Shown here in pieces: positions 32,526 to 51,746 of a stretch of DNA of 64,000 nucleotides (position 1 is the first letter of the stretch; every line of letters starts with the position of its first letter). The notes under the pieces are model-generated. The model had not been told where the DNA came from. It ran no database searches and saw only the letters and a list, made by a program, of their open reading frames with translations. The stretch is from a virus. Where the stretch lies: IMG/VR virus record IMGVR_UViG_3300045594_000099, positions 1 to 64,000 of that record. One strand, given 5' to 3'. The translations under genes were made by a program, and so were the position numbers.

Positions 32526-32737
32526 TGCTTGTAGAGATTGGCGACATGAAACTTACTCCGAAATTCCAGTGCTTTGATTCGTATGGCCCATTCGTTCTGA
32601 AAAGAGATGCTATAGAGGCATGCGCCAATCTTACTTCTGATTTAGCTGTGGCGTATGAGCAATTGCAAGCATACAAGTTGCAGAATGACATTCTTGTTGC
32701 TAGGCTTTCACGTTTAGAAAGAAATATGAATCTATGA
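32525..32737 (+). CDS. Hypothetical small protein (GTG start)
   Basis: 70-aa ORF filling the gap to the terminase gene; overlaps it by ATGA. Confidence 0.45.
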   Translation: MLVEIGDMKLTPKFQCFDSYGPFVLKRDAIEACANLTSDLAVAYEQLQAYKLQNDILVARLSRLERNMNL

Positions 32738-34341
32738 AAAGCAAGATGCTTGATTCTTTACTGAATGCTGTCACACCAGAATCTATAATAGCTAACTCGT
32801 TCAAGAGAAGCACTTCTCCATGGAATGACGACCCTATGGAGTTCTTCGAATCAGACAAGTTCTGCAATATGAAGCTGTATCCTAGACAGAGACTGATGCT
32901 TAAGCTATGGAATCTGCAATTAGATGACCTGTCTGATTATGAGAAGAAGACTCTTGACTCATGGAGAGCTTCTTTCTCAAATGATCAGTATACGATAGGC
33001 GTCAATGAGGACATATATGAAAGAATAGCCATTCTGAAGAAGAACGGCTACTTGTGGTTCAATACGATCATTCCGATTCTTGGAAGACGAGCATCCAAGA
33101 CTATGATGTCTGGTGCTCAGCTATGCCTTCAAGATGCTACTTTGATGTGGGATGGCATACCATCTGTCACTGTAGATGATGCTGGCGAGGGTGAAGACAA
33201 AGATGACTCTACATATTCGTTTGTAATTGCTAAGACGCAAGGCCAGGCTAAAGAGACTACGTTCGCAGCTCACTATAATGCAGTAATGCATTGCAAATGG
33301 CTAAAGCAATACATTGAAAGAGCTACTCCGTTCGAGATAAGATTTCAGACGTTCGATGACAGAATGCAATCTATCGATCTAGTAAGTCAGGGAATGCCGC
33401 TTGAAAAGCCAATCTCATCATTTGTAGCAAGGCCTGTGTCATCCGATTCCGATTCTATACGTGGTAGAGCTTGCGTATCTCCAGATTCGTATGTGCTTGA
33501 CTATCAAAGACATTGGGTTCAGCTTAGCACTATTCATCCTGGAAGCAGAATACTTGCTTTTCATGAGCATGAACCGTATTCATTGACAGAAGCTGTAGTT
33601 CTGAACATGTGGAAGACGAAGAAGGAATGCGTAAGACTGCATGTCTCTAAGAATGTCAATATGCCGTTAGTCTGCTCCATAGACCATAAGGTTCAGATGA
33701 ACGACTGGTCTTGGAAAGAAGCAGGAGCTCTGTCTAAAGGTGACATAGTTCGTACAGCTGACAGCACTAAGACTGTTCTTGAAGTCGAACATGTCGGAGA
33801 GCAAGATCTGATAGACATGACTACTTCTTCGCATACGTATCTTGCTAACAACATTCGATCTCACAACTGCGTATCGCTTGCTTATGACGAGATCTTCTTT
33901 GCTAATGCTGGGCAGTCGTCAAGATCTGGCGACAGAGGCGTCAAAGCAATGCAGCCAGCTTTGCAGCAGTTCGGCAAATACAAGCTGATGCTTTTCCCAT
34001 CTTCTCCATGGACTAGAAATGGAGTAGTGTACGACAAGTACTTGCAAGGTAGAGAGCATGTCAAAGAGTACATTGAGAAATACGGTCTATCAAGCAAAGA
34101 GAAAGATGCTCTAGACAAAGACATTGAGCATACTAAGAAAGCTATCATAACAGATCCCACTATTTTTGTTGCTCAGTTAGAGTCTTGGAATCTTTATGAA
34201 GACTTCGACAGTCAAGCATATGTTCCGACATACTATTCTGGCTTCAAAGCGAAGAAGCTTGTCATAGATGACAATGGCCATAAGACTGAAATAGTCGCCG
34301 ATACTAATGCTGTTGAAGGAGATTATGTCTATGTAGAATGA
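32734..34341 (+). CDS. Terminase large subunit, ATPase half only, interrupted by a mini-intein
   Basis: Walker A-like ILGRRASKTMMSG; SIRGRA/(intein)/CVSLAYDEIFF (Walker B); FPSSPW; ends soon after ESWNLYED with no nuclease domain. Confidence 0.8.
   Translation: MKSKMLDSLLNAVTPESIIANSFKRSTSPWNDDPMEFFESDKFCNMKLYPRQRLMLKLWNLQLDDLSDYEKKTLDSWRASFSNDQYTIGVNEDIYERIAILKKNGYLWFNTIIPILGRRASKTMMSGAQLCLQDATLMWDGIPSVTVDDAGEGEDKDDSTYSFVIAKTQGQAKETTFAAHYNAVMHCKWLKQYIERATPFEIRFQTFDDRMQSIDLVSQGMPLEKPISSFVARPVSSDSDSIRGRACVSPDSYVLDYQRHWVQLSTIHPGSRILAFHEHEPYSLTEAVVLNMWKTKKECVRLHVSKNVNMPLVCSIDHKVQMNDWSWKEAGALSKGDIVRTADSTKTVLEVEHVGEQDLIDMTTSSHTYLANNIRSHNCVSLAYDEIFFANAGQSSRSGDRGVKAMQPALQQFGKYKLMLFPSSPWTRNGVVYDKYLQGREHVKEYIEKYGLSSKEKDALDKDIEHTKKAIITDPTIFVAQLESWNLYEDFDSQAYVPTYYSGFKAKKLVIDDNGHKTEIVADTNAVEGDYVYVE
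33472..33867 (+). mobile_element. 132-aa mini-intein (no endonuclease domain) in the terminase ATPase just before Walker B
   Basis: Cys1 CVSPDSYVL (33472); block B SIDHK; block F/G DLIDMTTSSHTYLANNIRSHN followed by Cys+1 (33868). Confidence 0.8.
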
Positions 34342-34348
34342 CATAGAT

Positions 34349-34377
34349 TTTACTTTCTTATAGAAGTGTTATATAAT
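34349..34377 (+). promoter_or_regulatory. Conserved cassette promoter (TTTACT-17-TATAAT)
   Basis: taGATTTTACTTTCttatagaagtgtTATATAATATAA, 8 bp after the terminase-ATPase stop. Confidence 0.75.
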
Positions 34378-34408
34378 ATAATTACAAAATAAAAAACAAG
34401 ACAAAGGA

Positions 34409-34885
34409 ATGACAATGAAATACAAGAAAGCATTGCTAGCAATTACGAATATGCTTAACTGCGTAGCAGAAACTGACACTAATCCGAACATTTCGTTTAG
34501 AGTGCATTTCAAAGACAAAAAAGATGACAAAGCGCTTAATGACATAAATCAAGCACTAGTCAATCTTGGACTTGATATGTATTCATGCGTATTTGTAGAC
34601 AAGAGCTACTGGAAAGCAGTATGCGCTGATACGTCTAACAATGTGCATATCAATGCAAATCTTGACTTCGATCTACCCGAAGAAGAATGGTCTGACGATG
34701 TCAAGGAAGACGACAGGAAAGCTAAGAGACTTGCTTCAAAATCGTATCTGTCTAAAGAGCAAGAAGACGCTCTCGAAATCATTCGAGACATAATCAGCAT
34801 TGGCATCAGTCCAGATGATGCTGCAAAAGTGCTAGAAGCTTTGTCTAAGAAATACGACATCAAGAAGAAAGAGAACAAGATTTGA
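34409..34885 (+). CDS. Hypothetical protein
   Basis: 158-aa ORF after acaaagga. Confidence 0.55.
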   Translation: MTMKYKKALLAITNMLNCVAETDTNPNISFRVHFKDKKDDKALNDINQALVNLGLDMYSCVFVDKSYWKAVCADTSNNVHINANLDFDLPEEEWSDDVKEDDRKAKRLASKSYLSKEQEDALEIIRDIISIGISPDDAAKVLEALSKKYDIKKKENKI

Positions 34886-35178
34886 AGATAAGTTCTGGAC
34901 GAAAAAGGCTACGAAGCGACATAGCAAAGAGAATCTACTTCGATGCAAGCACATCTTCAGACATCAAAGAAGACTTCAGCAAAGTCAAGCCGCTAATTCA
35001 AGCATCTGTGCAACATGACTACACTAACATCAGCAATCATTTCAATGGTCAGCCATTCAAGATCAAATTCTGCAAGACTTGGGTAGAGCATCATTGTCTA
35101 GTAGTGATGTTCGCAATTGGATATACAGATGAAGCTAATGACGTGCTATACAGAAAGCAAAGTAGGAAAACGCTTTGA
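34882..35178 (+). CDS. Hypothetical protein (TTG start)
   Basis: 98-aa ORF translationally coupled to neighbours. Confidence 0.45.
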   Translation: MKISSGRKRLRSDIAKRIYFDASTSSDIKEDFSKVKPLIQASVQHDYTNISNHFNGQPFKIKFCKTWVEHHCLVVMFAIGYTDEANDVLYRKQSRKTL

Positions 35179-35426
35179 TTACAGATAAACACGAAAGTTT
35201 CGAATCAATAGAATACAATAATCTTTATGGATACGTAAAGAAAGATAAAGTTCCTATTAGCATTGATTTTGACAAAGATGAAATCGTCTATGCATACAGG
35301 TACTTTGTTTTCGTATTTGTCGGTACAATCATACGAATAGGCAAGAAAAGAGTTGGCTATTCTACAAGAGAAGAAGCTATAGACAGTTTCAAGAAATACG
35401 CTTCTGTTGAAGGCTTCAAATACTAG
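35175..35426 (+). CDS. Hypothetical protein (TTG start)
   Basis: 83-aa ORF; aggaaa-5 nt-TTG. Confidence 0.45.
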   Translation: MITDKHESFESIEYNNLYGYVKKDKVPISIDFDKDEIVYAYRYFVFVFVGTIIRIGKKRVGYSTREEAIDSFKKYASVEGFKY

Positions 35427-35440
35427 AAAGATTTGATATC

Positions 35441-35761
35441 ATGGCGAACGATCAAGAATACTCTATCTTAGACGCTTTTGAATATGTGAAAAGCAATGAA
35501 AACATTACGTCAAAGCCTGCTATCAATGACTTTGTCTATGTTACTCGCAATACGTACATTGATGGCAATGGCTATTATGGCAAGATTGCATACTATTCAG
35601 ATGTTTCACGAGTCATCATGCCTGTTCCAGCATTGCTATATTACAATGACAAGTATGGAGTAGGCGGAATGCAATACAAGTCTATTCTTGACTTGCTTAT
35701 GTCTGGATATTCATTCATCAAGATATCTGAAAAGCAATACGACGACAATGTCAAGAAGTGA
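35441..35761 (+). CDS. Hypothetical protein; AT-rich homolog of the C-terminal part of 44829..45353
   Basis: Shares FVYV.. / DYVY.. and Y.SIL..M.GYSFI. blocks with the GC-rich ORF 44829..45353. Confidence 0.55.
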   Translation: MANDQEYSILDAFEYVKSNENITSKPAINDFVYVTRNTYIDGNGYYGKIAYYSDVSRVIMPVPALLYYNDKYGVGGMQYKSILDLLMSGYSFIKISEKQYDDNVKK

Positions 35762-35782
35762 AAGTTTTGTTTTCATCTTGAT

Positions 35783-35811
35783 TTTACTTTCTTTCAGTAG
35801 TGTTATATAAT
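35783..35811 (+). promoter_or_regulatory. Conserved cassette promoter (TTTACT-17-TATAAT)
   Basis: tGATTTTACTTTCtttcagtagtgtTATATAATATAAc; drives the GC-rich island. Confidence 0.75.
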
Positions 35812-35851
35812 ATAACTATAAATAAAGACAAGTTTGTAGAAAGGACACAAA

Positions 35852-36139
35852 ATGAACAAGAAACTGCACCTCTATCGCATCAGCCAAAGCGTTAACATCG
35901 ATTACGATGTATATGATTCTGCTGTCGTTGCGGCGACAAGCGAGGACGACGCACGATCAATCCACCCGGACTCCTCCTTCCATCCGGGACCCGTACCAGC
36001 CTCGGAAGATGAATCCGGGAACGACGATGACTATTCGAATGACTGGTGCTGGCGGGAGGACGTGGATGTCGAATACGTCGGAGAGGCCCGTGACGGCATG
36101 CAGCGCGGTGTCATCTGCGCCAGCTTCAACGCAGGCTGA
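35852..36139 (+). CDS. Hypothetical protein, first gene of GC-rich island 1
   Basis: 95-aa ORF after gaaaggacacaaa; first 30 nt AT-rich, then composition jumps to GC-rich; ends ..GVICASFNAG. Confidence 0.6.
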   Translation: MNKKLHLYRISQSVNIDYDVYDSAVVAATSEDDARSIHPDSSFHPGPVPASEDESGNDDDYSNDWCWREDVDVEYVGEARDGMQRGVICASFNAG

Positions 36140-36164
36140 ACGAAAACACAGGAAAGGATATGAA

Positions 36165-36299
36165 ATGACAGAAACGGCCCTAGGAGCGCCCAGTAATCCG
36201 AAGAGCGATAACTTACCGCATTCAAGCCAAACCACGCAGGACGCCCACATTACGCAAGCCTCAGGGCATACCAACCACGAAACCAAGGCGGCAAAATGA
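36165..36299 (+). CDS. Hypothetical small protein
   Basis: 44-aa ORF after caggaaagga; its stop overlaps the next ATG. Confidence 0.3.
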   Translation: MTETALGAPSNPKSDNLPHSSQTTQDAHITQASGHTNHETKAAK

Positions 36300-36949
36300 G
36301 CAAGCAGATAATCACCGACTATATGGCGGGCAAAATCGGGGATGAATACTGGGTATCGGATCAGAACGGCGTCATCCGGGCACTGGGTGTGGTTGATCAT
36401 ATCGACGAAGAGGCAACCTTTCTTCGGTATCGCATTGACCTGTCGAGTAACGTCAGAAGCAACAGGAGACCCTGGTATAGCGGATTCGACCATTTTGAGC
36501 GCGAGGTGCCGGATGAGGAGTCCGAATCCGATGAAGGCATGGAACGGATCACCGACATCAAGCAAGTGTGCTCGGGTGATATCGAGGTCACGAAGAGCGG
36601 CAACCGGTATGAGGTGATTGAAACTGATAACACTCTAGACACTCTCAAGCTGCGCGTTGCCATCCCCGAATCCAACGATGAATACACGTGGCTTCATGAT
36701 TCTGCTTTCGCGTATGCGCTTCGCCCGAAGCCCAAGGTTCCCACCGAACCGGGATTGTACTTTGACAGTGTAAAAGATGTATGGGCGCTGTACGATGATG
36801 GCACTCGTCAACTAATACGTCGTGATGGACGGTATGTGAGTTTTGGTCTGAGAAGAAATGGTCTCAGAAGAAATGGTCTCAGAAGAAATGGTCTCAGCCC
36901 TAAGTTCGCACCATACTCTCGTATCGACTTGGATGACGACCATGAGTGA
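36296..36949 (+). CDS. Hypothetical protein containing a (GLRRN)n repeat
   Basis: 217-aa GC-rich ORF; shares a PEPGLY/TEPGLY block with the next gene. Confidence 0.55.
   Translation: MSKQIITDYMAGKIGDEYWVSDQNGVIRALGVVDHIDEEATFLRYRIDLSSNVRSNRRPWYSGFDHFEREVPDEESESDEGMERITDIKQVCSGDIEVTKSGNRYEVIETDNTLDTLKLRVAIPESNDEYTWLHDSAFAYALRPKPKVPTEPGLYFDSVKDVWALYDDGTRQLIRRDGRYVSFGLRRNGLRRNGLRRNGLSPKFAPYSRIDLDDDHE
36845..36897 (+). repeat. 15-bp tandem repeat, 3.5 copies (ggtctSagaagaaat)
   Basis: ggtctgagaagaaat ggtctcagaagaaat ggtctcagaagaaat ggtctcag; encodes GLRRNGLRRNGLRRNGL. Confidence 0.9.
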
Positions 36950-37430
36950 GCTAATAGCCAAGGACACGCCGGAACCGAAAGAGCCGGGACTCTATCTTAT
37001 TGCAGGCGAAACCGTTCTGCCGACTGTAGTTGTACGTTGTACAGATGACTTGGATAAGGAATTCCATTGGATGATGGTCGGAAGCACATGGATGTATAAC
37101 TGGGAAGGCATCCTCTTCGACTGGCTTCCATCTGATATTGCTTATACCATAGAGTCCCTGACCGAGCATGACAAGCGTATTCGTGATGAGACTGCACAAG
37201 ACATTGCAAGTAGATATTCAATTACACGTGGACCATTGACACAGGATGAGTTGGACAAGTCACAGAGTCTTCTCGATTCATTTATGAGCGATTTTGTTAA
37301 AGCGCCAAGACTTGTTGATCATGATCGCGATATAGCTAGCAAGGCATGGCGTGAAGGTCATTCTGCTGGTGAATACGACAGGCTGCTAGGCAACATTGAC
37401 ATATCTCCAAACCCATACGAAATCGAATAA
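36942..37430 (+). CDS. Hypothetical protein
   Basis: ATG 36942 (MSELIAKD) overlaps the previous stop (ATGAGTGA); the tracked start 36858 lies in the repeat. Confidence 0.55.
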   Translation: MSELIAKDTPEPKEPGLYLIAGETVLPTVVVRCTDDLDKEFHWMMVGSTWMYNWEGILFDWLPSDIAYTIESLTEHDKRIRDETAQDIASRYSITRGPLTQDELDKSQSLLDSFMSDFVKAPRLVDHDRDIASKAWREGHSAGEYDRLLGNIDISPNPYEIE

Positions 37431-37509
37431 TAGTGAATATGCAGTTGACAACCAAAGACATGGCAGAATCTGAAGACGTATCGCTGACATGTATAGAGAA
37501 AGGCATTCT

Positions 37510-37590
37510 ATGAATTGGCAGGATGTTGTCGTTACGGTGGCTATCCTAGCCGCAATAGTTCTGATTAGCTGGATGAATCGAAAAAAGTAG
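37510..37590 (+). CDS. Possible 26-aa single-TM peptide
   Basis: MNWQDVVVTVAILAAIVLISWMNRKK after gagaaagg; too short to be sure. Confidence 0.25.
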   Translation: MNWQDVVVTVAILAAIVLISWMNRKK

Positions 37591-37645
37591 ACATGAAGAA
37601 TATTCTCATTGCATTTTGGCTACACAACAATAGCGAGCGTAAATT

Positions 37646-37996
37646 ATGAGTGAACTGACAACCAATGAAATGCTGGAACATGAAGAGAAGTTGTTCTTCA
37701 TTGATGGAGAGCCATTCGTTCTCACTAAAAACAAAGAATCAGATTGCTATCGCGAACAGGTAAAGGAACTCCATGACCAGCATTCGTCCAACATCATTGA
37801 ATCACTTGCAGAGCATTACAAGCGCATACGTCATGATGCATTGACCCTTACTGATGCTGAAGCTAATGCTGGGGCAGATGCTATCGCTGACTTTTTCGCT
37901 TCGCCAGGCGAAGAAGTGATGTTAGAAATTCCGACGCTAGACATTCTGAATGCTGCAATCAAAGCAATAGCAGAGATACGCGAGCACAAATCATGA
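37646..37996 (+). CDS. Hypothetical protein
   Basis: 116-aa ORF; overlaps next start by ATGA. Confidence 0.5.
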   Translation: MSELTTNEMLEHEEKLFFIDGEPFVLTKNKESDCYREQVKELHDQHSSNIIESLAEHYKRIRHDALTLTDAEANAGADAIADFFASPGEEVMLEIPTLDILNAAIKAIAEIREHKS

Positions 37997-38136
37997 AGCA
38001 GTTGACAATAGACATGATACTCAAATGGCATGATGCAGGATATTCGCCAGAAGAGACATCCCGTCTGCTCAAACAGCCTGTAGCTATCGTAAATGCCGTC
38101 ATCGAAACTGCTAATGACAAGGGGCAGGATTTTTGA
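37993..38136 (+). CDS. Possible small HTH protein (47 aa)
   Basis: MKQLTIDMILKWHDAGYSPEETSRLLKQPVAIVNAVI..., translationally coupled on both sides; below the ORF-track cutoff. Confidence 0.35.
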   Translation: MKQLTIDMILKWHDAGYSPEETSRLLKQPVAIVNAVIETANDKGQDF

Positions 38137-38342
38137 AAGACTATAGAAAAGAGGCCGAATACCAGCGCAAATACCGGCAAAAGAAACGCGAAGAGAAGAT
38201 ACTAGAGGAGCTAGAAGAGATTGAATTATCAGAAGTCAAGGTAGATGTTGACGATCCAGTAACCTATAAGCTGATACAGAGAATGAGACAGCCTAAAATT
38301 AAGAGAGTGCATCGTAGCATGATAGATGATGTAGGCAGCTGA
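38133..38342 (+). CDS. Hypothetical basic protein (TTG start)
   Basis: 69 aa, KDYRKEAEYQRKYRQKKREEK. Confidence 0.4.
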   Translation: MKDYRKEAEYQRKYRQKKREEKILEELEEIELSEVKVDVDDPVTYKLIQRMRQPKIKRVHRSMIDDVGS

Positions 38343-38375
38343 TCAGCTTCCTGATATCGCTAAAGCATACAGCAA

Positions 38376-38861
38376 ATGAACTGCTCGCATCTACAAAAGA
38401 AAGAGACATGGCTAATGAAAGACAAAGAGACGCTTGCTTATTCGATATTCATAGCTTTAGAGCAAGCAGACATACTTGATCCTGCTCATGAATATTCGCC
38501 TTCGTGGCTGTATGACGAAGCGAAGCCTGTCATAATGAAGTGCTTGAATCAGTACTATGAAGATTCAAATAGCTCTGACATTACTGACAAAGACATAGAA
38601 TCTGTAGATTCTGCAAAGCAATTGCTGTCAGATGCGATAGATACTGTCACTGTCGACAGGAAAGAGGACTATGGAGAAGCTGAAGACTTCTTCAGTGATA
38701 TCGCTGGACTGTGGTCTGTCATTCTGCATGAAGACGTCTCAAGCAAAGAAGTAGCATTGTGCATGATAGCTTTGAAGATTGCTAGATGCAATAATGGCAA
38801 CTACAAAAGAGACAGTTGGCTTGATATTGCCGGATATGCAGCTTTGGGAAGTCAGTTGTAG
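38376..38861 (+). CDS. Hypothetical protein, DUF6378-like C-terminal half
   Basis: RKEDYGEAEDFFSDIAGLWSVIL...VALCMIALKIARC...RDSWLDIAGYAALG recalls a phage domain of unknown function (R..YG...f..iA..W....K..R...Ds..D.aGYa). Confidence 0.35.
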   Translation: MNCSHLQKKETWLMKDKETLAYSIFIALEQADILDPAHEYSPSWLYDEAKPVIMKCLNQYYEDSNSSDITDKDIESVDSAKQLLSDAIDTVTVDRKEDYGEAEDFFSDIAGLWSVILHEDVSSKEVALCMIALKIARCNNGNYKRDSWLDIAGYAALGSQL

Positions 38862-38944
38862 ACATATCTGCAATACAAGATACTTGCATCTAATAGACTG
38901 CTATTGTAACGATAGCATAATGTAAATGATACTATTGAAAGAAG

Positions 38945-39184
38945 ATGACTAGACCAATGTCTGCTTTGACATCTGCAAAATGCATAGAATGTGGTCATAT
39001 CGGACCTAAGTTTGCTATGCGAAAAGTCTTTGAGAATGGCTTTGTCAAAGGCTACAAGCACGAGAACTGCGAAAGCTACAAGGCAGCTCCGAAAGATACG
39101 AAAGACATCATAGAAGACAGTTATTCAAGGGCTTCAAGCTTGTTCGTCAAGAACAGAAATATGCGAAAGAGTCAGCAATTCTGA
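38945..39184 (+). CDS. Hypothetical small Cys-containing protein
   Basis: 79-aa ORF. Confidence 0.45.
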   Translation: MTRPMSALTSAKCIECGHIGPKFAMRKVFENGFVKGYKHENCESYKAAPKDTKDIIEDSYSRASSLFVKNRNMRKSQQF

Positions 39185-39228
39185 ATCTGTCACGAATTAG
39201 CAAAAAATGGAGACTAGACTTGCATAAG

Positions 39229-39375
39229 ATGAAAAGCTGGACATTCGAGAATGATGTCAAGACTAAAGTCACTGTCAAAGCAGAAAGATTTTCAGAAGCA
39301 TACAATAAAGCTTCGAAGTTCATCTGCAACCCTGTTCTTGTCAGCATCAAAGAAATGGATGATTTAGATGACTAG
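39229..39375 (+). CDS. Hypothetical small protein (48 aa)
   Basis: MKSWTFENDVKTKV...; overlaps the next start; below track cutoff. Confidence 0.3.
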   Translation: MKSWTFENDVKTKVTVKAERFSEAYNKASKFICNPVLVSIKEMDDLDD

Positions 39376-39601
39376 CATAGAAGATCGCAATGCAATCGAA
39401 TGCCCGTTCTGCAAAAAGCACCCTATTCTTGTCACAGAAGAAGTGACTGAAGGCAACAAGATGCATAATGAGCATCAGCTAAGATGCTCTCATCCATCAG
39501 GCTTCAAGACCTGCTTCTACTTGACTAAAGCTGAAGCTGAAAAGCATTGGAATGGCATGATGCTTGAATGCATATCTAATAGAGCACTGCTAGGAAGATG
39601 A
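39368..39601 (+). CDS. Lar-like restriction-alleviation protein candidate
   Basis: IECPFCKKHPILV ... RCSHPSGFKTC ... TKAEAEKHWNGM follows the Lar family layout (CPFCG ... second Cys pair ... eAi..WN). Confidence 0.45.
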   Translation: MTSIEDRNAIECPFCKKHPILVTEEVTEGNKMHNEHQLRCSHPSGFKTCFYLTKAEAEKHWNGMMLECISNRALLGR

Positions 39602-39622
39602 CATTCTACATCGCATCTTGAT

Positions 39623-39651
39623 TTTACTTTCTTGTAATTGTGTTGTATAAT
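39623..39651 (+). promoter_or_regulatory. Conserved cassette promoter (TTTACT-17-TATAAT)
   Basis: tGATTTTACTTTCttgtaattgtgttgTATAATATAAc. Confidence 0.75.
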
Positions 39652-39700
39652 ATAACTATAAATCAAAAACAAACAAGAAAGTGAATCAGGAGAATACATC

Positions 39701-39874
39701 ATGAAACTCAACAAGACTAGAATCAAGCTTATCGCTCTTGCTTTCATAGCATCTATGCTTGCTCTTGCAGTCAATGCTATCCCATCGCTATCCGATTCTA
39801 AAGGCGAAGTAAATGCTTTTGCATTGCTAGGCGTTTTCTTGTTCTTAGCTGCTTGGAAAGGAAACGAAGACTGA
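39701..39874 (+). CDS. Small two-TM membrane protein (57 aa)
   Basis: ATG after aggagaatacatc; MKLNKTRIKLIALAFIASMLALAVNAI...FALLGVFLFLAAWKG. Confidence 0.5.
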   Translation: MKLNKTRIKLIALAFIASMLALAVNAIPSLSDSKGEVNAFALLGVFLFLAAWKGNED

Positions 39875-40221: not shown

Positions 40222-40236
40222 AAAGTGATATGCATC

Positions 40237-44145: not shown

Positions 44146-44242
44146 TTGTACGACGTTGTCATGTGTGGACTTAGAATGCGAGGTATATATAATTTATAAT
44201 CCTAATACTACTAAGTTCACACATGACATCCTCATAACACGT
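44142..44242. repeat. Palindromic intergenic element, copy 5
   Basis: ctgattgtacgacgttgtcatgtgtggacttagaatg..gtatatataatttataat..gttcacacatgacatcctcataacacg; compensatory arm changes keep pairing (gtcatgtgtg / cacacatgac). Confidence 0.8.
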
Positions 44243-44318
44243 GAGATACACTGAGTTAAAATATAGGATATGAATATGACAGCGTCATGATGAAGCTGAA
44301 ACAAAGCTCAATCTTGAT

Positions 44319-44347
44319 TTTACTTTCTGCAAAAGTGGTTATATAAT
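44319..44347 (+). promoter_or_regulatory. Conserved cassette promoter (TTTACT-17-TATAAT)
   Basis: tGATTTTACTTTCtgcaaaagtggtTATATAATATAA; drives GC-rich island 2. Confidence 0.75.
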
Positions 44348-44391
44348 ATAAATATAAGGAAAACAAATAAAAAAGAAAGAAAGCGATAAAA

Positions 44392-44604
44392 ATGAAAAAG
44401 ACAATCAGAATAGACAATTTGGAAGATGTGAAGATCGGTGACATGCTGTTTGTCAAAGGGCGCAGCGACGGGTTCCATGTAGTATGCGTGCGCGCATGCG
44501 CTTCGTGGCTCCATGTAGCTGTGGACAACCCATCCTGTAACAGGATGGCTTACGTGAGTACGGACAGGTTCGATCATGCTGAGCGGAAGGCTGTGGCGCG
44601 ATGA
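44392..44604 (+). CDS. Hypothetical small protein, first gene of GC-rich island 2
   Basis: 70-aa ORF; AT-rich first 60 nt then GC-rich. Confidence 0.5.
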   Translation: MKKTIRIDNLEDVKIGDMLFVKGRSDGFHVVCVRACASWLHVAVDNPSCNRMAYVSTDRFDHAERKAVAR

Positions 44605-44676
44605 GCATCACAACAGATGAAGCGTAAGTCAAGGCAGTGAATCAGCTTTGTTAAAGTACAAAAGAGGGACATAATC

Positions 44677-44832
44677 ATGAGCGGCGTTCTTAACGTTTCG
44701 TTCTCCATACCGTTTGAAACATACGACATGGACGATATTAACCAGATGCTCAGCCATGCAGGGTTCGTTGATCCTAGGTGCTATGAGATATCTTTTAAAG
44801 ATTTTGAAGATGATGAGGAGCAGGAATCATGA
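44677..44832 (+). CDS. Hypothetical small acidic protein (51 aa)
   Basis: After aaagaggga; stop overlaps next ATG; below track cutoff. Confidence 0.35.
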   Translation: MSGVLNVSFSIPFETYDMDDINQMLSHAGFVDPRCYEISFKDFEDDEEQES

Positions 44833-45353
44833 CACAGGAATACACGCCAACCACTGATGAGGTTCGTAGGGGTTTCAGAGCTGATCCGAGCAAATATGAA
44901 TACGCTGAAACGCCTGAGTACATAGACGAGAACTGGTGGGAGCTTAATAAACTGGCCCATGGCCGCCCCGACGAACTCGCCGCTCATGATGCTCAGGTAC
45001 GAGCAGAAGCAGTGCTTTCAGCTTTTCATTATGACGATTACGAGAGTGAGGATGGCGAAGAGCCGAGACTTCGACTAGGTGACTATGTGTATGCATTCTG
45101 CGAGCTTCCGCCAAACATGGGAGAGGTTTGTTTTCACGCACATATTGTCAATTTCTCCGATGATTACAGGGGCGTTAAACCCACACCTGCTTTCAAAATA
45201 CTGGATTCAGAAGGCGAAGAAAGATATGCGTCAATTCTTGAATGCGCGATGCAGGGTTACTCGTTCATTCTTGTAAACAAGCAGTCAGTTGCCGAGCACC
45301 GTAAGGAGACAGTAATGAATGAGTATCTTGAACAATTGAACAGAGCATATTAG
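44829..45353 (+). CDS. Hypothetical protein; GC-rich homolog of 35441..35761 in its C-terminal half
   Basis: LGDYVYAF...RYASILECAMQGYSFILVNKQS versus FVYVTR...QYKSILDLLMSGYSFIKISEKQ. Confidence 0.55.
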   Translation: MTQEYTPTTDEVRRGFRADPSKYEYAETPEYIDENWWELNKLAHGRPDELAAHDAQVRAEAVLSAFHYDDYESEDGEEPRLRLGDYVYAFCELPPNMGEVCFHAHIVNFSDDYRGVKPTPAFKILDSEGEERYASILECAMQGYSFILVNKQSVAEHRKETVMNEYLEQLNRAY

Positions 45354-45374
45354 AAAGTAGTAAGGAATATTATC

Positions 45375-45617
45375 ATGAAAGAAGCAAACTCAGTATTCGA
45401 CGTTCTGCTCTTCGACGAAAAGCATAATCTTATAGAGCGAATTGGCCCCTTTGTTGAAGATTATAGTGATGTTATAGAGCTGGGATATTCAAGGCTTTCG
45501 GAGAAGAGGCCAGAACAGCAAAAGCCTGCGTATTTCACAATTGAGAAGAGGTTTCTACCTTTTCTCAATCAGAAGAATACCCCGTTCGAATACCCCTTTG
45601 TTATAAGGAGACAGTAA
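45375..45617 (+). CDS. Hypothetical small protein
   Basis: 80-aa ORF after gtaaggaatattatc. Confidence 0.5.
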   Translation: MKEANSVFDVLLFDEKHNLIERIGPFVEDYSDVIELGYSRLSEKRPEQQKPAYFTIEKRFLPFLNQKNTPFEYPFVIRRQ

Positions 45618-45636
45618 GGAATGAAAGGCTTGAATC

Positions 45637-46602
45637 ATGGACATTCAAAATCAGAACTACCCGAATTGGCAGCATGACAGTACTCATATATCGCACCCAT
45701 CTGCACAAGCTCCTGATCCAGACAGCAAGAAGCATGACACGATCAAGAAAATTGCAATTGGAGTTGGCGTAGCAGTTGTTGTAGCGGCAACATGCTTAGC
45801 GATACATTCATACGTTCAGAAAGCTAATGTAGTAGGTCTCAATGCTGCTTTTAGTAGATGCGACAATGAAATGAACAAATCTTTCAAAGATGACGGTTTC
45901 AGTGCTGACGACTACATGGCATCAACTTCGTCAGTGTCTCCATACAGCAATACGAAGTATTTCGACTGCATTGCGACTAATCTTGGAGTAGACAAGAGCA
46001 ATCTTAATTCGATAGTCAAGCATGACGCTGACAAGGGCAGTGATGAGACTGTAGACACTGCTGGCACTAAAGCAAAACAAAATGGAGACTATCGGTTCTT
46101 CCTGTTCAAGAACGACTATGGCAAGTATCAGTTTGGAGCTATGACAGAAGCTACGTATGATACTTACTTCAAACCTGAACCAGCATCCAATTCTTCGTCT
46201 GATTCTGATTCAGATAGCAGTTCTAGCGATAATGACCAGCAAGATGCTTCTCAGCCAGAACCTAGTGATAGTGATGCAACTCCTTCTTCATCGCAATTAA
46301 AAGAGCAGATCATGGACACTTGCTTTGCTGATGTGACTACGTCGCAATATGCTAAGCTTGGCTTCATCAATGACAATGAGCTTGTATGGAATGACTCTAC
46401 TGAAATGGTAGCTAATGGCGCAGATGCTATCAACTGCACTAAGAATCTGATTCATTCCACAGATCCAGACGTGACTTGGTCCCAGCTTATGAGCATTCAT
46501 GGTCGTCAAGCACCCTTGATGCTCATTGGAGCTTGCGGAGTCATAGAAATACAAGATGGAGACACTCAGGACTCTACTGCAGTGCAAGTCAGTCTGGACT
46601 AG
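45637..46602 (+). CDS. N-terminally membrane-anchored protein with Ser/Asp-rich linker
   Basis: TM segment IAIGVGVAVVVAATCLAI; SNSSSDSDSDSSSSDNDQQD linker. Confidence 0.55.
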   Translation: MDIQNQNYPNWQHDSTHISHPSAQAPDPDSKKHDTIKKIAIGVGVAVVVAATCLAIHSYVQKANVVGLNAAFSRCDNEMNKSFKDDGFSADDYMASTSSVSPYSNTKYFDCIATNLGVDKSNLNSIVKHDADKGSDETVDTAGTKAKQNGDYRFFLFKNDYGKYQFGAMTEATYDTYFKPEPASNSSSDSDSDSSSSDNDQQDASQPEPSDSDATPSSSQLKEQIMDTCFADVTTSQYAKLGFINDNELVWNDSTEMVANGADAINCTKNLIHSTDPDVTWSQLMSIHGRQAPLMLIGACGVIEIQDGDTQDSTAVQVSLD

Positions 46603-46618
46603 CATTTAGCGAGATTGA

Positions 46619-46647
46619 TTCGAATATAGTAGCGTTGATGATATAAT
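46619..46647 (+). promoter_or_regulatory. Weak cassette promoter variant (TTCGAA-17-TATAAT)
   Basis: gattcgaatatagtagcgttgatgaTATAATATAAc. Confidence 0.4.
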
Positions 46648-46675
46648 ATAACTATATGGATCTTGTCATCACATC

Positions 46676-47761
46676 ATGATTCTTCCATATGAATCGCATC
46701 TATTCTACTACGAAAGGTTGAATGCATTGAGCAATACTATGAAGTTTGAGATAGCTTCTGACGACTTGGGAATCTGGGATGCTTCAGATGCACAAGATCT
46801 CTATTCTAGTCTGAAGTCTTCTGCCAAGAGCTACAATGTAGTTCTGCAATATGATGGCGAGGACGGATTCAATTATGCATTCACAGCTGTAGGAGATGGA
46901 GACGATCTTCTAGCTTTGTATGATGGTGCAATTAGATGGTACACGAAAATGTCTGCTGAAGATGCTGCAAGCGAATCAGCTGAAAATGGAGGAATAACTA
47001 TGTCTGCTAAGAAGACAGCTGCTGACGACTTCGACTGGTCTTTGGAGTCATATGACGATCCAGACTATGGCGAGATCAAAGAATGGACATACAGCACTGG
47101 CAAAGACGAGTTCACGATCCAGTCTTATGTAGATGAAGATGGCTTTGAGCATTTTGATGCTACATCGTCAGTCAATGGTCTGCTAAATGACAGCTTCGAT
47201 GGATTCGATTCGTTTGAAGAAGCTGAAAATGCTTGCTACAATGCTGCTGATCTTGATGATGAGAAAGAAGCAGATGACCCATTTGCTACTGAAGCTTCTG
47301 CAAAGAAAGCCCATCTTGATGGCTGGGAAGAAGACGAACCAGGTACATTCTACAAGGAATTATCGAATGGCTTTGAAGGTTTTGTTGGAGATGCTACTGG
47401 CAATGGCTTTGGCTATACTATTCTAAACAATACGGATAACGATCTGCCTTCAAACGAGCTGTATTCAAAGGATGGCTTTGATTCTATTGAAGAAGCTGAA
47501 GCTGCTGCAGATGCATGGGTAGCTTCCAATATCACTGCCTCGAAGCATGAAGCTTCTGTAAAGAAAGCACATGACGTATCTAATCTAGATGTAGCTATTT
47601 CAGCACTGTCTGATCAATTAGCGCTTGATCCGGATGATGAACTAGCTGATATGCTTTCAGATCTAGTCGAATACAGAAACGGTGAAGCAAAAGAGACTGT
47701 TGAAGACGAATTCGAAGCACATGGAGAGAATGTTCCGATCACTGAATCTGCAAAGAAATAA
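46676..47761 (+). CDS. Highly acidic protein with internal repeats (start uncertain, alternative ATG 46739)
   Basis: Repeated modules DGFDSFEEAENA / DGFDSIEEAEAA and SAKKTAADDFDW / SAKKAHLDGWEED / SVKKAHDVS / ESAKK; D+E very abundant. Confidence 0.6.
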   Translation: MILPYESHLFYYERLNALSNTMKFEIASDDLGIWDASDAQDLYSSLKSSAKSYNVVLQYDGEDGFNYAFTAVGDGDDLLALYDGAIRWYTKMSAEDAASESAENGGITMSAKKTAADDFDWSLESYDDPDYGEIKEWTYSTGKDEFTIQSYVDEDGFEHFDATSSVNGLLNDSFDGFDSFEEAENACYNAADLDDEKEADDPFATEASAKKAHLDGWEEDEPGTFYKELSNGFEGFVGDATGNGFGYTILNNTDNDLPSNELYSKDGFDSIEEAEAAADAWVASNITASKHEASVKKAHDVSNLDVAISALSDQLALDPDDELADMLSDLVEYRNGEAKETVEDEFEAHGENVPITESAKK

Positions 47762-47838
47762 TCTGCTGAATTGACATCTTTTTGATGTTCGAATATAGCA
47801 TTTGCACTTGATATGACGATGCCATGAAGTCTAGTCTA

Positions 47839-47866
47839 AGCCCAGCCCAATAAGCTGGGCTTTTTC
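47839..47866 (+). terminator. Rho-independent terminator
   Basis: AGCCCAGC-ccaataa-GCTGGGCT followed by TTTTT; the only classical GC-stem/T-tract terminator I found. Confidence 0.8.
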
Positions 47867-47886
47867 TATATTCTTTTCATGTCGAT

Positions 47887-47915
47887 TTTACTTTCATAAA
47901 ATAGTGTTATATAAT
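47887..47915 (+). promoter_or_regulatory. Conserved cassette promoter (TTTACT-17-TATAAT)
   Basis: cGATTTTACTTTCataaaatagtgtTATATAATATAAc. Confidence 0.75.
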
Positions 47916-47959
47916 ATAACTATAAATAAAAAACAATCAACAAAAGGAAGAAGTCAATC

Positions 47960-48271
47960 ATGATGTGGTATTTCACATTCGGAAGCAAATACGACTACGA
48001 GCCTCATTCAGTACTAGGCAACATCAGTGCAGATGAAGTCATTCTTGTAGAAGCTGCTTCTTATGATGATGCTAGAACTGCTATGCTAGATGTAGTCGGA
48101 ACAGAATTCGCTTTCCAGTACGAGACTCCTACTGTTCCAGATAATGTGCTGCTGAAAATAACAGTAAAGAATGAAAATGGAAAGAAGACATACAGCTACG
48201 TTCCATTCCCGTCTACTCCAATCGTAGTCAATCGTTATGCTCAGATTGAGAATGCATTCGTTCATACATGA
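47960..48271 (+). CDS. Hypothetical protein
   Basis: 103-aa ORF after aaaaggaagaagtcaatc. Confidence 0.55.
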   Translation: MMWYFTFGSKYDYEPHSVLGNISADEVILVEAASYDDARTAMLDVVGTEFAFQYETPTVPDNVLLKITVKNENGKKTYSYVPFPSTPIVVNRYAQIENAFVHT

Positions 48272-48306
48272 CCTGGAAAGTATCAAGCAAGTCTTAAGGA
48301 TGTAAA

Positions 48307-48708
48307 ATGACAGACTTGTACACGATATCCAACATAGAAGTAGATTCCAATGGACTATCTAAAGACACATATATTGGACGATTGATGTATGCTGCTGATT
48401 TGAAATTCAAAGACGAGATAATTGACTTCTACAAAGAAGACTTTGTAAAGAGACTTCATAGTGATGGCTGCAATGCTACAAAAGAAGATGTGCAAGTACA
48501 TGTAGAGTATTCAGACAGTACTTTACAGTTCACTATTTGGATGAAATACATTCCATGCAAGTCTCTTGTCAATTCTTTGGAACGCGATACTGTCTATGGC
48601 AAGTTGTCAGATCCAGTTCGATATGCTACTGACGGGACAAAGCAGTATCGATATGCTGGCATCAATCCAAGATTGAACGTATGCATATATACATTAGACG
48701 AGGAGTGA
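48307..48708 (+). CDS. Hypothetical protein
   Basis: 133-aa ORF after taaggatgtaaa. Confidence 0.55.
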   Translation: MTDLYTISNIEVDSNGLSKDTYIGRLMYAADLKFKDEIIDFYKEDFVKRLHSDGCNATKEDVQVHVEYSDSTLQFTIWMKYIPCKSLVNSLERDTVYGKLSDPVRYATDGTKQYRYAGINPRLNVCIYTLDEE

Positions 48709-48711
48709 CAT

Positions 48712-48972
48712 ATGGAAGACTTCAACATAAAATACTCAAATCGACAGAAAGGGTATATTGAATATTTGACAGAAAATCCACGTATTGCAGGCTACATAAT
48801 GCGAAGAAAAATTGTGATTTATGCAGATGAATCTACTGGCAAGAAACAGTATGCATATCGCTGGATAATACGTCACGATGACGGTTTTGGCTATAAGACT
48901 TTGAATGAAGCTAAGAAAGCAGTAGAAGAAAGAATGCGAAATGGAAGTCTGGAGCAATTCACATTATTATGA
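48712..48972 (+). CDS. Hypothetical protein
   Basis: 86-aa ORF after gaggagtgacat. Confidence 0.5.
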   Translation: MEDFNIKYSNRQKGYIEYLTENPRIAGYIMRRKIVIYADESTGKKQYAYRWIIRHDDGFGYKTLNEAKKAVEERMRNGSLEQFTLL

Positions 48973-49124
48973 CTAGCTGCGACGATCTTCCATTCTACAG
49001 ATACATCCAATCTGGTTTCAGCATAGACTACTTGTTCAGAGAGTTCGGAATTAGCTATGAAGAAGCTACTCGTATCTTTGATGACTTCGATGATGCATAT
49101 TGCAAAGACGTTCTAGATGAGTAG
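48969..49124 (+). CDS. Hypothetical small protein (51 aa)
   Basis: ATGA-coupled; MTSCDDLPFYRYIQSGF...; below track cutoff. Confidence 0.3.
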   Translation: MTSCDDLPFYRYIQSGFSIDYLFREFGISYEEATRIFDDFDDAYCKDVLDE

Positions 49125-49222
49125 ATTTACGACGTTGTTCTCTAATGACTTAGAATTGTAAGTATATATAATTATATATACTGAATACTCGAGGTTCACA
49201 CATATAAACCTCGTAATTCTGA
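49122..49222. repeat. Palindromic intergenic element, copy 6
   Basis: tagatttacgacgttgttctctaatgacttagaattg..gtatatataattatatatac..ggttcacacatataaacctcgtaattctg. Confidence 0.85.
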
Positions 49223-49312
49223 GGATATGCAGAGTATAAAGATAGGATATGAATATGACATGAACATGCTGATTGAAAACGAAGATAGAAACAGAAACGA
49301 AAAGGACGAAAT

Positions 49313-49483
49313 ATGGTTGCGCTTGTCAAGCCAAATGATGTAGACAACAAAGAATTCGACTTCAAGACTAGCTACAAAAGGGACTGGTATGATGCAGACC
49401 AAGTAGATGACTTTCTAGATGATGTGCATGACACTATACTGGAGCTAGCTAAAGACAACATACGATTGAGAAAGAGACTTTGA
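49313..49483 (+). CDS. DivIVA-domain small protein (56 aa)
   Basis: FDFKTSYKRDWYDADQVDDFLDDVHDTILELAKDNIRLRKRL fits the DivIVA N-terminal pattern F....rGY....VD.FLd.v....l..eN..L. Confidence 0.55.
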   Translation: MVALVKPNDVDNKEFDFKTSYKRDWYDADQVDDFLDDVHDTILELAKDNIRLRKRL

Positions 49484-49488
49484 ATAGA

Positions 49489-49920
49489 ATGACTGAATAT
49501 ATGAGACTATCAGATGTTGCTCAAGAACCGACTAGAAAGCATGCATTTGATGCTGGCTCTGATCTGCATTCTTCTGAAGACACGACAATCGAACCTGGAC
49601 AGTACAAGCTTGTGCATACAGGCATTGCTATTAGACTAGACAAGAACAAAGTAGCAATGGTAGTTCCACGATCTGGTCTAGCTATCCATAATGGAATCAC
49701 AGTCATGAATTCTCCAGGAATTGTAGACTCTGGATACAGAGGAGAGATTCTAGTCAATCTTGTCAATCACAGCGACAAAGTATTCGAAATCAAGACTGGT
49801 GACAGAATCGCTCAGCTTCTTGTCATGTCTGTAGACTTGTCAAATTGGGAAGAAACAGAAAGCCTGGGCAAGTCTGAAGATGGAAGAGATGAATCTGGCT
49901 TCGGATCTACAGGAGTCTGA
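49489..49920 (+). CDS. dut: Trimeric dUTPase
   Basis: All five motifs: DAGSDL, PRSG, GIVDSGYRGEI, GDRIAQLL, RDESGFGSTG. Confidence 0.93.
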   Translation: MTEYMRLSDVAQEPTRKHAFDAGSDLHSSEDTTIEPGQYKLVHTGIAIRLDKNKVAMVVPRSGLAIHNGITVMNSPGIVDSGYRGEILVNLVNHSDKVFEIKTGDRIAQLLVMSVDLSNWEETESLGKSEDGRDESGFGSTGV

Positions 49921-49977
49921 TTGCAATAGCATGAAATGCTATGTCTTATAATAGAAAGCTTAGAAAAGGGAATTGAA

Positions 49978-50454
49978 ATGAAGCGCACTTTAAGAATCAA
50001 CATGAAGAACAATGTGAAAGATGGAGATCGAGTTCATGTATTCTTGCACGACTTGAATGTTGATTTCATGTTCGACAGAGAATGTGAGATATATGCAAAC
50101 TACATTGCGCATCTTGAAGATGGAGTCATCTATGTCGGAGGATGCAATATAGACAGTCTATACGATCAGAATCATGCGCCAAAGCAAGGGTCTTATGCAG
50201 AATTCTTGTTTGCTACTAGAGAGAAAGACGAGGAGATTGACGAAGTAGACAGCTTTCTTTCAAGACAAGATGTATTGACTCTGTTCAGAAAAGAAGATGG
50301 GTCTGTATGGTTCATCAGCAGAGACAACCATCCGATTCTTCTTCATGGGGCTCGTGGCAATGTCACTGCTAAATACGCTAGACAATGCATTGACTCTTAT
50401 GGCTTCCCTGGAGGAATGAGTCGTTACAAGCGATTCGATGTACCTCTTAAGTAG
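49978..50454 (+). CDS. Hypothetical protein
   Basis: ATG 49978 (MKRTLRI) after gaaaaggg. Confidence 0.5.
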   Translation: MKRTLRINMKNNVKDGDRVHVFLHDLNVDFMFDRECEIYANYIAHLEDGVIYVGGCNIDSLYDQNHAPKQGSYAEFLFATREKDEEIDEVDSFLSRQDVLTLFRKEDGSVWFISRDNHPILLHGARGNVTAKYARQCIDSYGFPGGMSRYKRFDVPLK

Positions 50455-50496
50455 CATTCTGCAAAAATGCAATTTAGCATGTTCTCATGAATCACT

Positions 50497-50564
50497 CAGA
50501 TTAATTGCAGTAAACCGTTAGTATATAATTATATATACAAGCTTCAATGACTACAGTTAATCTG
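50497..50564. repeat. Short variant of the palindromic element (termini and centre only)
   Basis: cagattaattgcag..gtatataattatatatac..ctacagttaatctg; its right end forms the first codons of ORF 50547. Confidence 0.6.
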
Positions 50565-51611
50565 GTGAAAATGGGACATTTTGTAAAAGTGTTGGATTCT
50601 GAAGCAATTGACACTTCAGATATGAGCAATATTGAGCTAGATGCTTTCCAGAAAGCTAAAGCTTACAAGCATCTTGCATTCTCCAGGCCTATTCAGTTCA
50701 AGCCAGATGCTAATGGCTCAATTGAAGAGCAAGCTATGGCAGCTGAAGAAGCAGCTGATCCAATAAATGCTAGAGTTGAGAACAGAGCTCAGTTCGTCGA
50801 AGGCTTGAATGTCTATCTGTCTCCTCAAGCTGTTGCTAAGATATTTGACGACTTCGACATCAATGGCATTCACAGACATCTTGAGAAGCAAAATCAGGGT
50901 GCATACTCTAAAGAGTACCATATGCATTGCGATCCAGCTAAAGTCAACGATGACTTCGCTGTAATGATATGCCATTCTGAACTGAATGAGCCTGACGAGT
51001 TCGGCATAAGCTACAAGCACATGATAGTCGACTGGTATTCAGTCTACAAGTCAAGCCAGTTCGAATCTGGTCAGATAGAGTACAGACACATACTGAATGA
51101 CATAAAGCAGCTTATAGCTATGTTCAGACTAAAGACGATATCATTCGATCAGTTCAATTCAGTCATGCCTATACAGGATCTGATGGCATACTGCCATGAT
51201 AACAACATAGCTTGCAAAGTGTTCGAAGAGACATTCACTGGAAGCAAGAACACTAAGATGTACGAGACATTGAAGATGTGCATAAATGAGCATTGGGTTC
51301 ATTCGTACTTCGATGACATGAACACTTGGGAGACAGCTAGGTGCATGCTTCAAGCAGAACTGGAAGCTTTGCAGATAGTGAATGGCAAAGTAGTCAAGCC
51401 AAGAATAGGGAATCTTGGGCACTCAGATCTTGTCGACTGCTTGATGGTGCTAGCATACAGACTTCTTTCAGACCAGACTAATGCTAGAGCAGACAGATAT
51501 CTGAACAATGTCGTGTCTAGTCCATCTGATTCGTTAAATTCAGCAGTATCTGACATAGATGCATATGCTAAGCCGTCTAAGTTCAAGTCTCCGTATTCTG
51601 GAATGTTTTGA
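50547..51611 (+). CDS. Terminase large subunit, nuclease half (separate gene; start may be ATG 50571)
   Basis: DPINARVENRAQFVEG (linker motif dp..f..e..a.F), HMHCDPAKVNDDFAVMICH (first catalytic Asp strand), ISFDQFNS, HSDLVDCLMVLAY (last Asp), the RNase-H-like TerL nuclease layout. Confidence 0.75.
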   Translation: MTTVNLVKMGHFVKVLDSEAIDTSDMSNIELDAFQKAKAYKHLAFSRPIQFKPDANGSIEEQAMAAEEAADPINARVENRAQFVEGLNVYLSPQAVAKIFDDFDINGIHRHLEKQNQGAYSKEYHMHCDPAKVNDDFAVMICHSELNEPDEFGISYKHMIVDWYSVYKSSQFESGQIEYRHILNDIKQLIAMFRLKTISFDQFNSVMPIQDLMAYCHDNNIACKVFEETFTGSKNTKMYETLKMCINEHWVHSYFDDMNTWETARCMLQAELEALQIVNGKVVKPRIGNLGHSDLVDCLMVLAYRLLSDQTNARADRYLNNVVSSPSDSLNSAVSDIDAYAKPSKFKSPYSGMF

Positions 51612-51733: not shown

Positions 51734-51746
51734 ATAGTATTAGCGG

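Follow-up and report, generated by a model that had tools for sequence, protein, structure and literature searches.

The large terminase subunit (TerL) of the tailed phage represented by IMG/VR virus record IMGVR_UViG_3300045594_000099 is encoded by two genes, one for the ATPase and one for the nuclease, which lie 16.2 kb apart and have their own stop and start codons. The stretch of DNA analysed here, referred to throughout as the window, corresponds to positions 1 to 64,000 of that record (64,000 nucleotides; nt). The two enzymatic domains are thus not carried by a single polypeptide, and this is also true of all close homologues. An initial annotation of the window had already proposed such a split; both open reading frames (ORFs) and the motifs quoted for them are present, and homology and protein fold agree with the proposal. 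We consider it likely that the large terminase is made as two separately translated proteins, which assemble non-covalently into a two-subunit TerL through a C-terminal extension of the ATPase half (the tail) and an N-terminal extension of the nuclease half (the head).

The product of the ATPase-half gene (32734..34341) was identified as an N-terminal ASCE P-loop ATPase of the TerL type from its motifs (Walker A, GRRASKT; Walker B, LAYDE; motif III, FPSSPW), its match to PHROG 2, terminase large subunit (E = 1.5e-7), and its homology to annotated terminases. The GRRASK[ST], DE and SSP residues were invariant across 18 aligned homologues of this half. A profile search against Protein Data Bank (PDB) sequences returned no match for the ATPase half, and the AlphaFold2 model of the intein-containing protein (predicted local distance difference test, pLDDT, 51) was too poor for a fold search.

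The nuclease half was recognized by its fold. Its AlphaFold2 model (mean pLDDT 76) was compared with the PDB by Foldseek, which gave the G20c nuclease domain (5m1o, E = 6.7e-7) as the top match, followed by the TerL nuclease domains of P74-26, Sf6, HK97 and D6E; 13 of the 18 matches with E ≤ 0.001, including the top 13, were TerL proteins or TerL nuclease domains. Four acidic residues, D121 (HCDPA), D193 (DQFN) and D286 and D289 (GHxDLVDC), were invariant in 17 nuclease-half sequences, as expected for the conserved metal ligands of an RNase-H/RuvC-fold nuclease. This half had no PHROGs match and no significant Pfam match; among the comparisons with the PDB only that of the fold was successful, a profile search against PDB sequences giving no terminase match. 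The initial annotation gave the nuclease ORF as 50547..51611. This ORF does exist, but the gene starts at 50571: the ATG at that position and its GGTGA are invariant, whereas three relatives 97–98% identical to the window have ATT in place of the ATG at 50547. The first codons had also been thought to derive from a reduced palindromic element; because the true start is at 50571, beyond this element, the gene is not built from it, and two of the same three relatives lack the element altogether.

Comparison with contiguous TerL proteins located the break precisely. Both halves are homologous to gp254 (738 amino acids; aa) of Bangla1971, a Bxz1-type cluster C mycobacteriophage (Ceeclamvirinae), with about 30% identity and an identical order of motifs: the ATPase half corresponds to aa 24–364 and the nuclease half to aa 369–656. 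The break therefore falls at residues 364/369, with nothing lost and nothing duplicated. The contiguous proteins P0063, P0068 and P0069 likewise map end to end onto the two ORFs; in P0068, aa 246–360 match 33877–34209 and aa 359–659 match 50646–51554. In tblastn searches, both ORFs matched the same 224 actinophage records, in which the two matches lie 12 nt apart within one gene annotated as “terminase”. On the basis of these alignments, the cut is clean and lies at the inter-domain hinge. The Bangla1971 enzyme is a single polypeptide with none of the additions described below (intein, 43-aa tail, 25-aa head), whereas the parts of the window gene are separated by 16 kb. Bxz1-type cluster C phages otherwise resemble the window phage in having a DnaE-type polymerase, a WhiB protein and scattered structural genes.

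No second, complete terminase was found. Near-identical IMG/VR contigs and one Logan contig gave access to the remainder of the genome, adding about 40 kb beyond the window and bringing coverage to about 95% of the genome, or all but some 5.4 kb (IMGVR_UViG_3300044557_000185, positions 35174–40577). Over this extent, tblastn searches with both halves and four contiguous TerL proteins recovered only the two known genes, and PHROG scans of the larger remaining ORFs identified portal, sheath and minor tail proteins, transposases and a homing endonuclease, but no terminase. A complete TerL elsewhere, or a nuclease ORF unrelated to terminases, would have contradicted the initial annotation; neither was encountered.

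The split was conserved throughout the clade. The 18 nuclease-half homologues in the databases were all 274–349 aa long, and about 45 stand-alone homologues of the ATPase half had lengths of about 320–440 aa, or more if an intein was present; the five most distant homologues were fused TerL proteins of 573–687 aa. In a profile search of 1.84 billion representative proteins, which gave 634 matches, the closest clusters were stand-alone proteins matched from residue 1, and most of the remaining matches were fused proteins of 570–750 aa in which the match begins near residue 320–400. Identity among the split halves fell to 35–40%, with the Walker A and B motifs, motif III and the acidic residues of the nuclease still invariant.

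The two genes were on the same strand of every contig containing the pair, and the distance between them varied greatly (Table 1). In a 132-kb relative (L004), the block running from the ATPase gene through small genes and a dUTPase gene to homologues of 51815 and 52288 is syntenic with the window but has no nuclease gene; in that lineage the nuclease gene ends a plus-strand block containing head-fibre and leucine-rich repeat (LRR)/DUF285 proteins, just before genes on the opposite strand. Given this synteny and the distances of 45–68 kb in other relatives, in one of which the order is reversed, what differs among relatives is where the nuclease gene sits, and terL did not receive the accessory genes as an insert. 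The suggestion that the accessory region was a huge insertion tolerated at the domain boundary thus finds no support, unlike the other possibility offered at the time, that the halves are separate polypeptides. As judged from these comparisons, the split is a clade-wide property rather than a local 16-kb insertion, and the fission is old, with at least one displacement of the nuclease gene since.

A more distant lineage (P0060, encoded by L026 6001–6966, with P0061, P0062, P0064 and P0066) also has stand-alone ATPases. These proteins, of 317–331 aa, end exactly at ESWKMYE and have no tail. No nuclease half was found within 2.4 kb downstream of P0060 in L026, where the ORFs considered as candidates were rejected. 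This lineage may represent a second, independent fission at the same hinge. Separately, the genes directly 5′ of the nuclease halves in L001 and L003 were considered as possible ATPase halves and proved unrelated.

Both halves extend beyond the region shared with contiguous TerL proteins. The tail was present in all the stand-alone ATPase halves of the clade, with the consensus PTYxSGWSPKxLxLxNExGxxxxVxAxTNAxxGxYV, and was absent from the contiguous TerL proteins compared; residues P498, T499, Y500, G503, G515, T524 and N525 were invariant or nearly so, and in the ATPase-half alignment the tail was conserved at the level of the catalytic core. It is predicted to form a β-hairpin, with strands at residues 505–513 and 516–524 (pLDDT 62–82), the best part of the ATPase model. 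Many relatives also have an acidic run after the tail. The head is a hydrophobic strand of about 25 aa, beginning with MGHFVKVL in the window and MSWWRVV or MxFWKV in relatives. It was found only in stand-alone nuclease halves, with no counterpart in contiguous TerL proteins, and its residues 1–6 had a pLDDT below 50 in the monomer model. Among the proteins aligned, both extensions are restricted to split forms. An apparent short overlap duplicated between the halves, arising where MAFFT placed the head MSWWRVV under ESWRLYE of the ATPase, was dismissed, two common residues being too few.

Inteins do occur in this ATPase gene. A cis mini-intein that the initial annotation had overlooked was predicted from sequence within the window gene (Table 1), as an in-frame insertion at a conserved site with Cys1, His-Asn and Cys+1. 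It gave a weak match to the Pfam Hint family and was absent from 16 of the 18 aligned homologues; the homologue P0020 has precomputed Hint and Intein_splicing domains. In IMGVR_UViG_3300045988_069020 (L019, 9968–12756), the ATPase gene is fractured at the site of the window intein. The first piece joins the N-part of the ATPase to an N-intein fragment (CLDPNT…), a free-standing gene for an endonuclease follows (378 aa, zinc-finger-like repeats), and the last piece joins a C-intein fragment (…KTHN, then Cys) to the ATPase C-part and tail. TerL is thus encoded in three pieces in L019, and L024 looks similar.

These inteins bear on the possibility that the ATPase and nuclease halves become a single polypeptide through trans-splicing by an atypical or degenerate split intein. 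Dassa et al. 2009 reported a fractured terminase of this kind, a phage TerL likewise encoded by two ORFs. That terminase, which is gp17-like, contains a natural split intein with a very short N-part (PMC2677866), the clade itself has both cis and split inteins in its ATPase gene, and the tail combines a β-hairpin with a G-D-x-V motif. We nonetheless regard trans-splicing at the ATPase/nuclease junction as very improbable. The mini-intein of the clade itself has 132 aa, whereas the tail and head together amount to about 68 aa. No Cys or Ser is conserved at the opening of the tail, the window having Lys-Ala where relatives have Ser-Pro or Thr-Pro, and in none of the 17 aligned nuclease halves does HN plus Cys, Ser or Thr occur close to the N-terminus, in agreement with the earlier rejection of a split intein at this junction for want of HN plus a nucleophile. 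The tail had nevertheless been called Hint-strand-like; this description did not hold, a comparison of the tail profile with the N-intein fragments of the clade revealing no similarity (hhalign probability 0.3%). Since L019 carries an obvious split intein elsewhere in the ATPase gene, one at the junction would be recognizable. The gene layout also differs. In the Dassa terminase, whose arrangement is also that of the canonical fractured ATPase gene of L019, a homing endonuclease gene lies between adjacent halves. The intein parts of the Dassa terminase (C-part, 122 aa) splice the product into one protein, and its break lies inside a conserved motif. In the window clade, the break is at the domain hinge, there are no intein blocks at the junction and no homing endonuclease gene between adjacent halves, and the halves are 16–68 kb apart, with genes for a glycosyltransferase, a pentapeptide-repeat protein and a dUTPase and about 30 small genes between them.

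Rejoining of the nucleic acids also appears highly unlikely, whether through a group I or II intron spliced in cis or in trans or through programmed removal of the intervening DNA late in infection. It would be compatible with the order of the genes in the window, ATPase then nuclease on one strand, and has a parallel in the Jug phages, in which terL is also found in several ORF fragments, interrupted by self-splicing group I introns (PMC12880540). The Jug fragments are adjacent and co-transcribed, and metatranscriptome reads have demonstrated that splicing makes their coding region whole again, whereas in the window clade neither intron RNA nor a joint was found and the order of the genes is not fixed, the nuclease gene lying upstream or 45–68 kb away in relatives. 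At the gathering threshold, Rfam identified one tRNA and no intron family in the whole window, and at E values up to 5 it gave nothing intron-like within 1.3 kb of either boundary. Moreover, beyond the point where homology to contiguous TerL proteins breaks off, the reading frames extend by 43 and 25 codons that are conserved at the protein level, with conserved stop and start codons. A DNA sequencing run was colinear with the window across 32500–52000, no joint between the halves was found in DNA or in three metatranscriptomes (contigs only, with sparse coverage), and an RNA contig (34201–34351) continues past the ATPase stop codon without interruption. The intervening segment is not flanked by long direct repeats. 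Two RNA joints, from 41191/41192 to 43528 and to 50703, were considered as terL junctions and discarded, being due to about 21 nt of a repeated palindromic element. In L003, about 1–2 kb upstream of the nuclease-half gene, there is an RT-19 RNA motif (Rfam RF03073, 93.5 bits) with a reverse transcriptase gene (7605–8872); considered as a possible group II intron, it was found to be a separate element.

According to the assembly that we favour, the ATPase gene product would first lose its 132-aa cis intein, yielding a packaging ATPase of about 403 aa, and 50571..51611 would provide the linker and RNase-H-fold nuclease as a protein of 346 aa. Nothing would rejoin the halves at the DNA, RNA or protein level. 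Instead, the 43-aa hairpin tail of the ATPase would pair with the N-terminal strand of the nuclease (about 25 aa), replacing the lost peptide bond of the hinge, and the two-subunit complex would package and cut concatemeric DNA by a headful mechanism, like a contiguous TerL. We infer that the two proteins form a stable complex with the extensions as its interface. Several observations weigh against this model. In T4, isolation of the nuclease domain lowers its activity about 13-fold and abolishes its control by ATP (PMC3074133), so that a split enzyme would need some compensation. The head is retained as a hydrophobic pattern only, with no invariant residue, and GHFVKVL in the window departs from the SWW[KR]V consensus. 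The hairpin is predicted from one locally confident stretch of a poor model (pLDDT 51). RNA coverage was sparse and based on contigs, making the lack of spliced joints weak evidence, and the search for a second TerL covered all but about 5.4 kb of a 108-kb relative contig.

The main alternative is an arrangement with no stable complex, in which the ATPase alone serves as the portal-bound motor, as in phi29 gp16, and a free nuclease is recruited only for the first and headful cuts. In its favour, the two genes have different transcription contexts and an unconstrained relative position, the nuclease gene has a promoter-like element of its own, and the head is only loosely conserved. The conservation of the tail to the same degree as the catalytic core, in split forms only, points instead to a partner, and the nuclease half retains the whole linker region homologous to contiguous TerL proteins. 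In T4, the C-terminal domain is part of the translocating unit, and the isolated domain's nuclease activity is about 13-fold below that of full-length gp17 (PMC3012670, PMC3074133). The comparison with phi29 is also imperfect: gp16 is likewise a packaging ATPase with no active nuclease on its chain (PMC7672431), but the unit-length, protein-primed genome of phi29 requires no cutting and its ATPase chain retains a vestigial C-terminal fold, whereas the window phage encodes an intact nuclease elsewhere. Overall, recruitment of a free nuclease seems unlikely, and we would give a similarly low rating to the corollary that the motor of this clade runs with no attached nuclease or C-terminal domain, visited by the enzyme only to cut.

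Least probable of all is a disabling mutation that would leave the phage defective or dependent on a helper terminase. In its favour, the phage has no cultured isolate and is known from metagenome data only. Against this, the split is retained in lineages 35–50% identical with every catalytic motif intact, the genomes are of 90–137 kb and encode portal, sheath, baseplate and replication proteins, and the phage is present in many runs from sludge and wastewater, RNA runs included. The positions of the terminase genes and adjacent elements, and the gene distances in relatives, are listed in Table 1.

Table 1. Terminase genes and neighbouring elements in the window, and distance between the two genes in relatives
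Feature or relative	Coordinates in the window	Strand	Gene distance	Description
TerL ATPase-half gene	32734..34341	+		535 aa, 403 aa after intein removal
Cis mini-intein (predicted)	33472..33867	+		132 aa (aa 247–378); CVSPDSY...NNIRSHN then Cys+1; 7 residues before Walker B Asp-Glu
Clade-specific C-terminal extension (tail) of ATPase half	34210..34338	+		aa 493–535, 43 aa
First promoter-like cassette	34349..34377	+		8 nt after ATPase stop; marks start of accessory block
Reduced palindromic element, TATATAATTATATA core	50513..50542	.		upstream of nuclease gene; absent in L007 and L009
TerL nuclease-half gene	50571..51611	+		346 aa; inter-domain linker region and RNase-H-fold nuclease
Clade-specific N-terminal extension (head) of nuclease half	50571..50645	+		aa 1–25
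Full palindromic element, ~100 nt	51632..51744	.		directly downstream of nuclease gene
Three 97–99% identical relatives			16.7–16.9 kb (worked out for two)	window-like arrangement
IMGVR_UViG_3300045988_069020			~45 kb	nuclease gene upstream
IMGVR_UViG_3300003155_000137			~62 kb	nuclease gene at lower coordinates
IMGVR_UViG_3300045988_063082			~68 kb	ATPase gene upstream

TerL is a hallmark gene of tailed phages, and a comparative survey described the fusion of its ATPase and nuclease as universal in Caudovirales (PMC7824862). In the open-access papers to which our literature search was limited, we found no TerL with its ATPase and nuclease as separate gene products in the absence of a splicing element. 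The enzyme presented here is a genuine variant of a very well-known one, conserved and, it appears, not described before. In models of T4 packaging, the inter-domain hinge transmits force and regulates the nuclease (PMC3012670, PMC3074133). Given these roles of the hinge and the reduced activity of the isolated C-terminal domain, a natural fission at this site is informative, providing a ready-made system for asking whether covalent linkage is needed for translocation and for the timing of the headful cut, and what minimal peptide interface can replace the hinge. If the nuclease did prove to be free, the covalent hinge and the tethered C-terminal domain, central to the T4-type inchworm model, would be dispensable in a tailed phage with headful packaging. 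More speculatively, splitting might help to control or hide a protein recognized by bacterial Avs sensors. There is also a practical consequence: pipelines using TerL as a marker or for phylogeny would call these phages TerL-less or truncated, because Pfam gives nothing significant in either half and PHROGs nothing in the nuclease half.

About 34 plus-strand ORFs were counted between the halves, fewer than the 45 or so small accessory genes given by the initial annotation. The repeated cassette promoters that it had reported were found again: the promoter-like cassette TTTACT-17-TATAAT occurs at 34349, 35783, 39623, 44319 and 47887, with variants at 43510 and 46636. The longer cassette sequence GATTTTACTTTC...TGTTATATAATATAACTATAAA spans 34340–34411, 35774–35845, 39614–39685, 43510–43558, 44310–44381 and 47878–47949, with a partial copy at 46636–46660, and these cassettes precede sets of small accessory genes. 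Palindromic elements of about 100 nt were located at 41103–41202, 44149–44236, 49125–49228 and 51632–51744. Four full copies and a reduced one had been placed between the halves; the elements exist, but the fourth full copy lies after the nuclease gene. Their TATATAATTATATA core reads as a −10 box on both strands, and the reduced element upstream of the nuclease gene may be a promoter. The palindromes were the sites of highest depth in the metatranscriptome contigs (12.3 and 11.1, run X10) and were spuriously joined to one another there. Their role may be that of bidirectional promoters or of stable hairpin RNAs common to related phages. A GC-rich island, also reported previously, was confirmed at 36000–37000 (52% versus about 40%). 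It contains a 217-aa ORF with no family match and three copies of the 15-nt tandem repeat TGGTCTCAGAAGAAA (36844–36897), and was probably acquired horizontally.

Upstream, a 70-aa ORF (32525–32737) overlaps the start of the ATPase gene (ATGA) and is kept in this position in every relative examined. Just before it lies the gene for a 153-aa protein with a C-terminal helix-turn-helix (31464–31925). Both proteins are candidates for the small terminase or for a different partner of the split enzyme.

The phage genome is about 106–108 kb long, with nearly all genes on the plus strand. The phage recurs in bioreactor-sludge and wastewater metagenomes, in many runs including RNA runs, and was absent from the INPHARED collection. 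Contigs of the same phage begin at different points of the genome, which is compatible with headful cutting. Among the products of the window are an NAD-dependent ligase, a DnaE-type polymerase with an intein, RecA/UvsX and DnaB homologues, a WhiB protein, and baseplate and other virion proteins; of the named phages, the Bxz1-type cluster C mycobacteriophages are closest to it. The WhiB-family regulator (21697–22002; Pfam 29.2 bits, cut-off 23.6) suggests an actinobacterial host, despite a GC content of 40%, and the sole match in reference genomes, with 36% identity, was on a short contig of an Aeriscardovia metagenome-assembled genome. A tRNA-Arg(TCT) gene is located at 17151–17225. The DnaE-type DNA polymerase III alpha subunit (8754–13424, 1556 aa) contains a large intein at about aa 894–1273 (Pfam Intein_splicing). 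Just upstream of where the window starts is the portal gene (L030 7262–8887), which adjoins the DNA ligase gene. Elsewhere outside the window, the same genome has a TnpB/IS605-type gene, a transposase gene and a gene for a 603-aa HNH homing endonuclease among structural genes (L028 8557–9831; L038 14795–16081, minus strand, and 73–1884).

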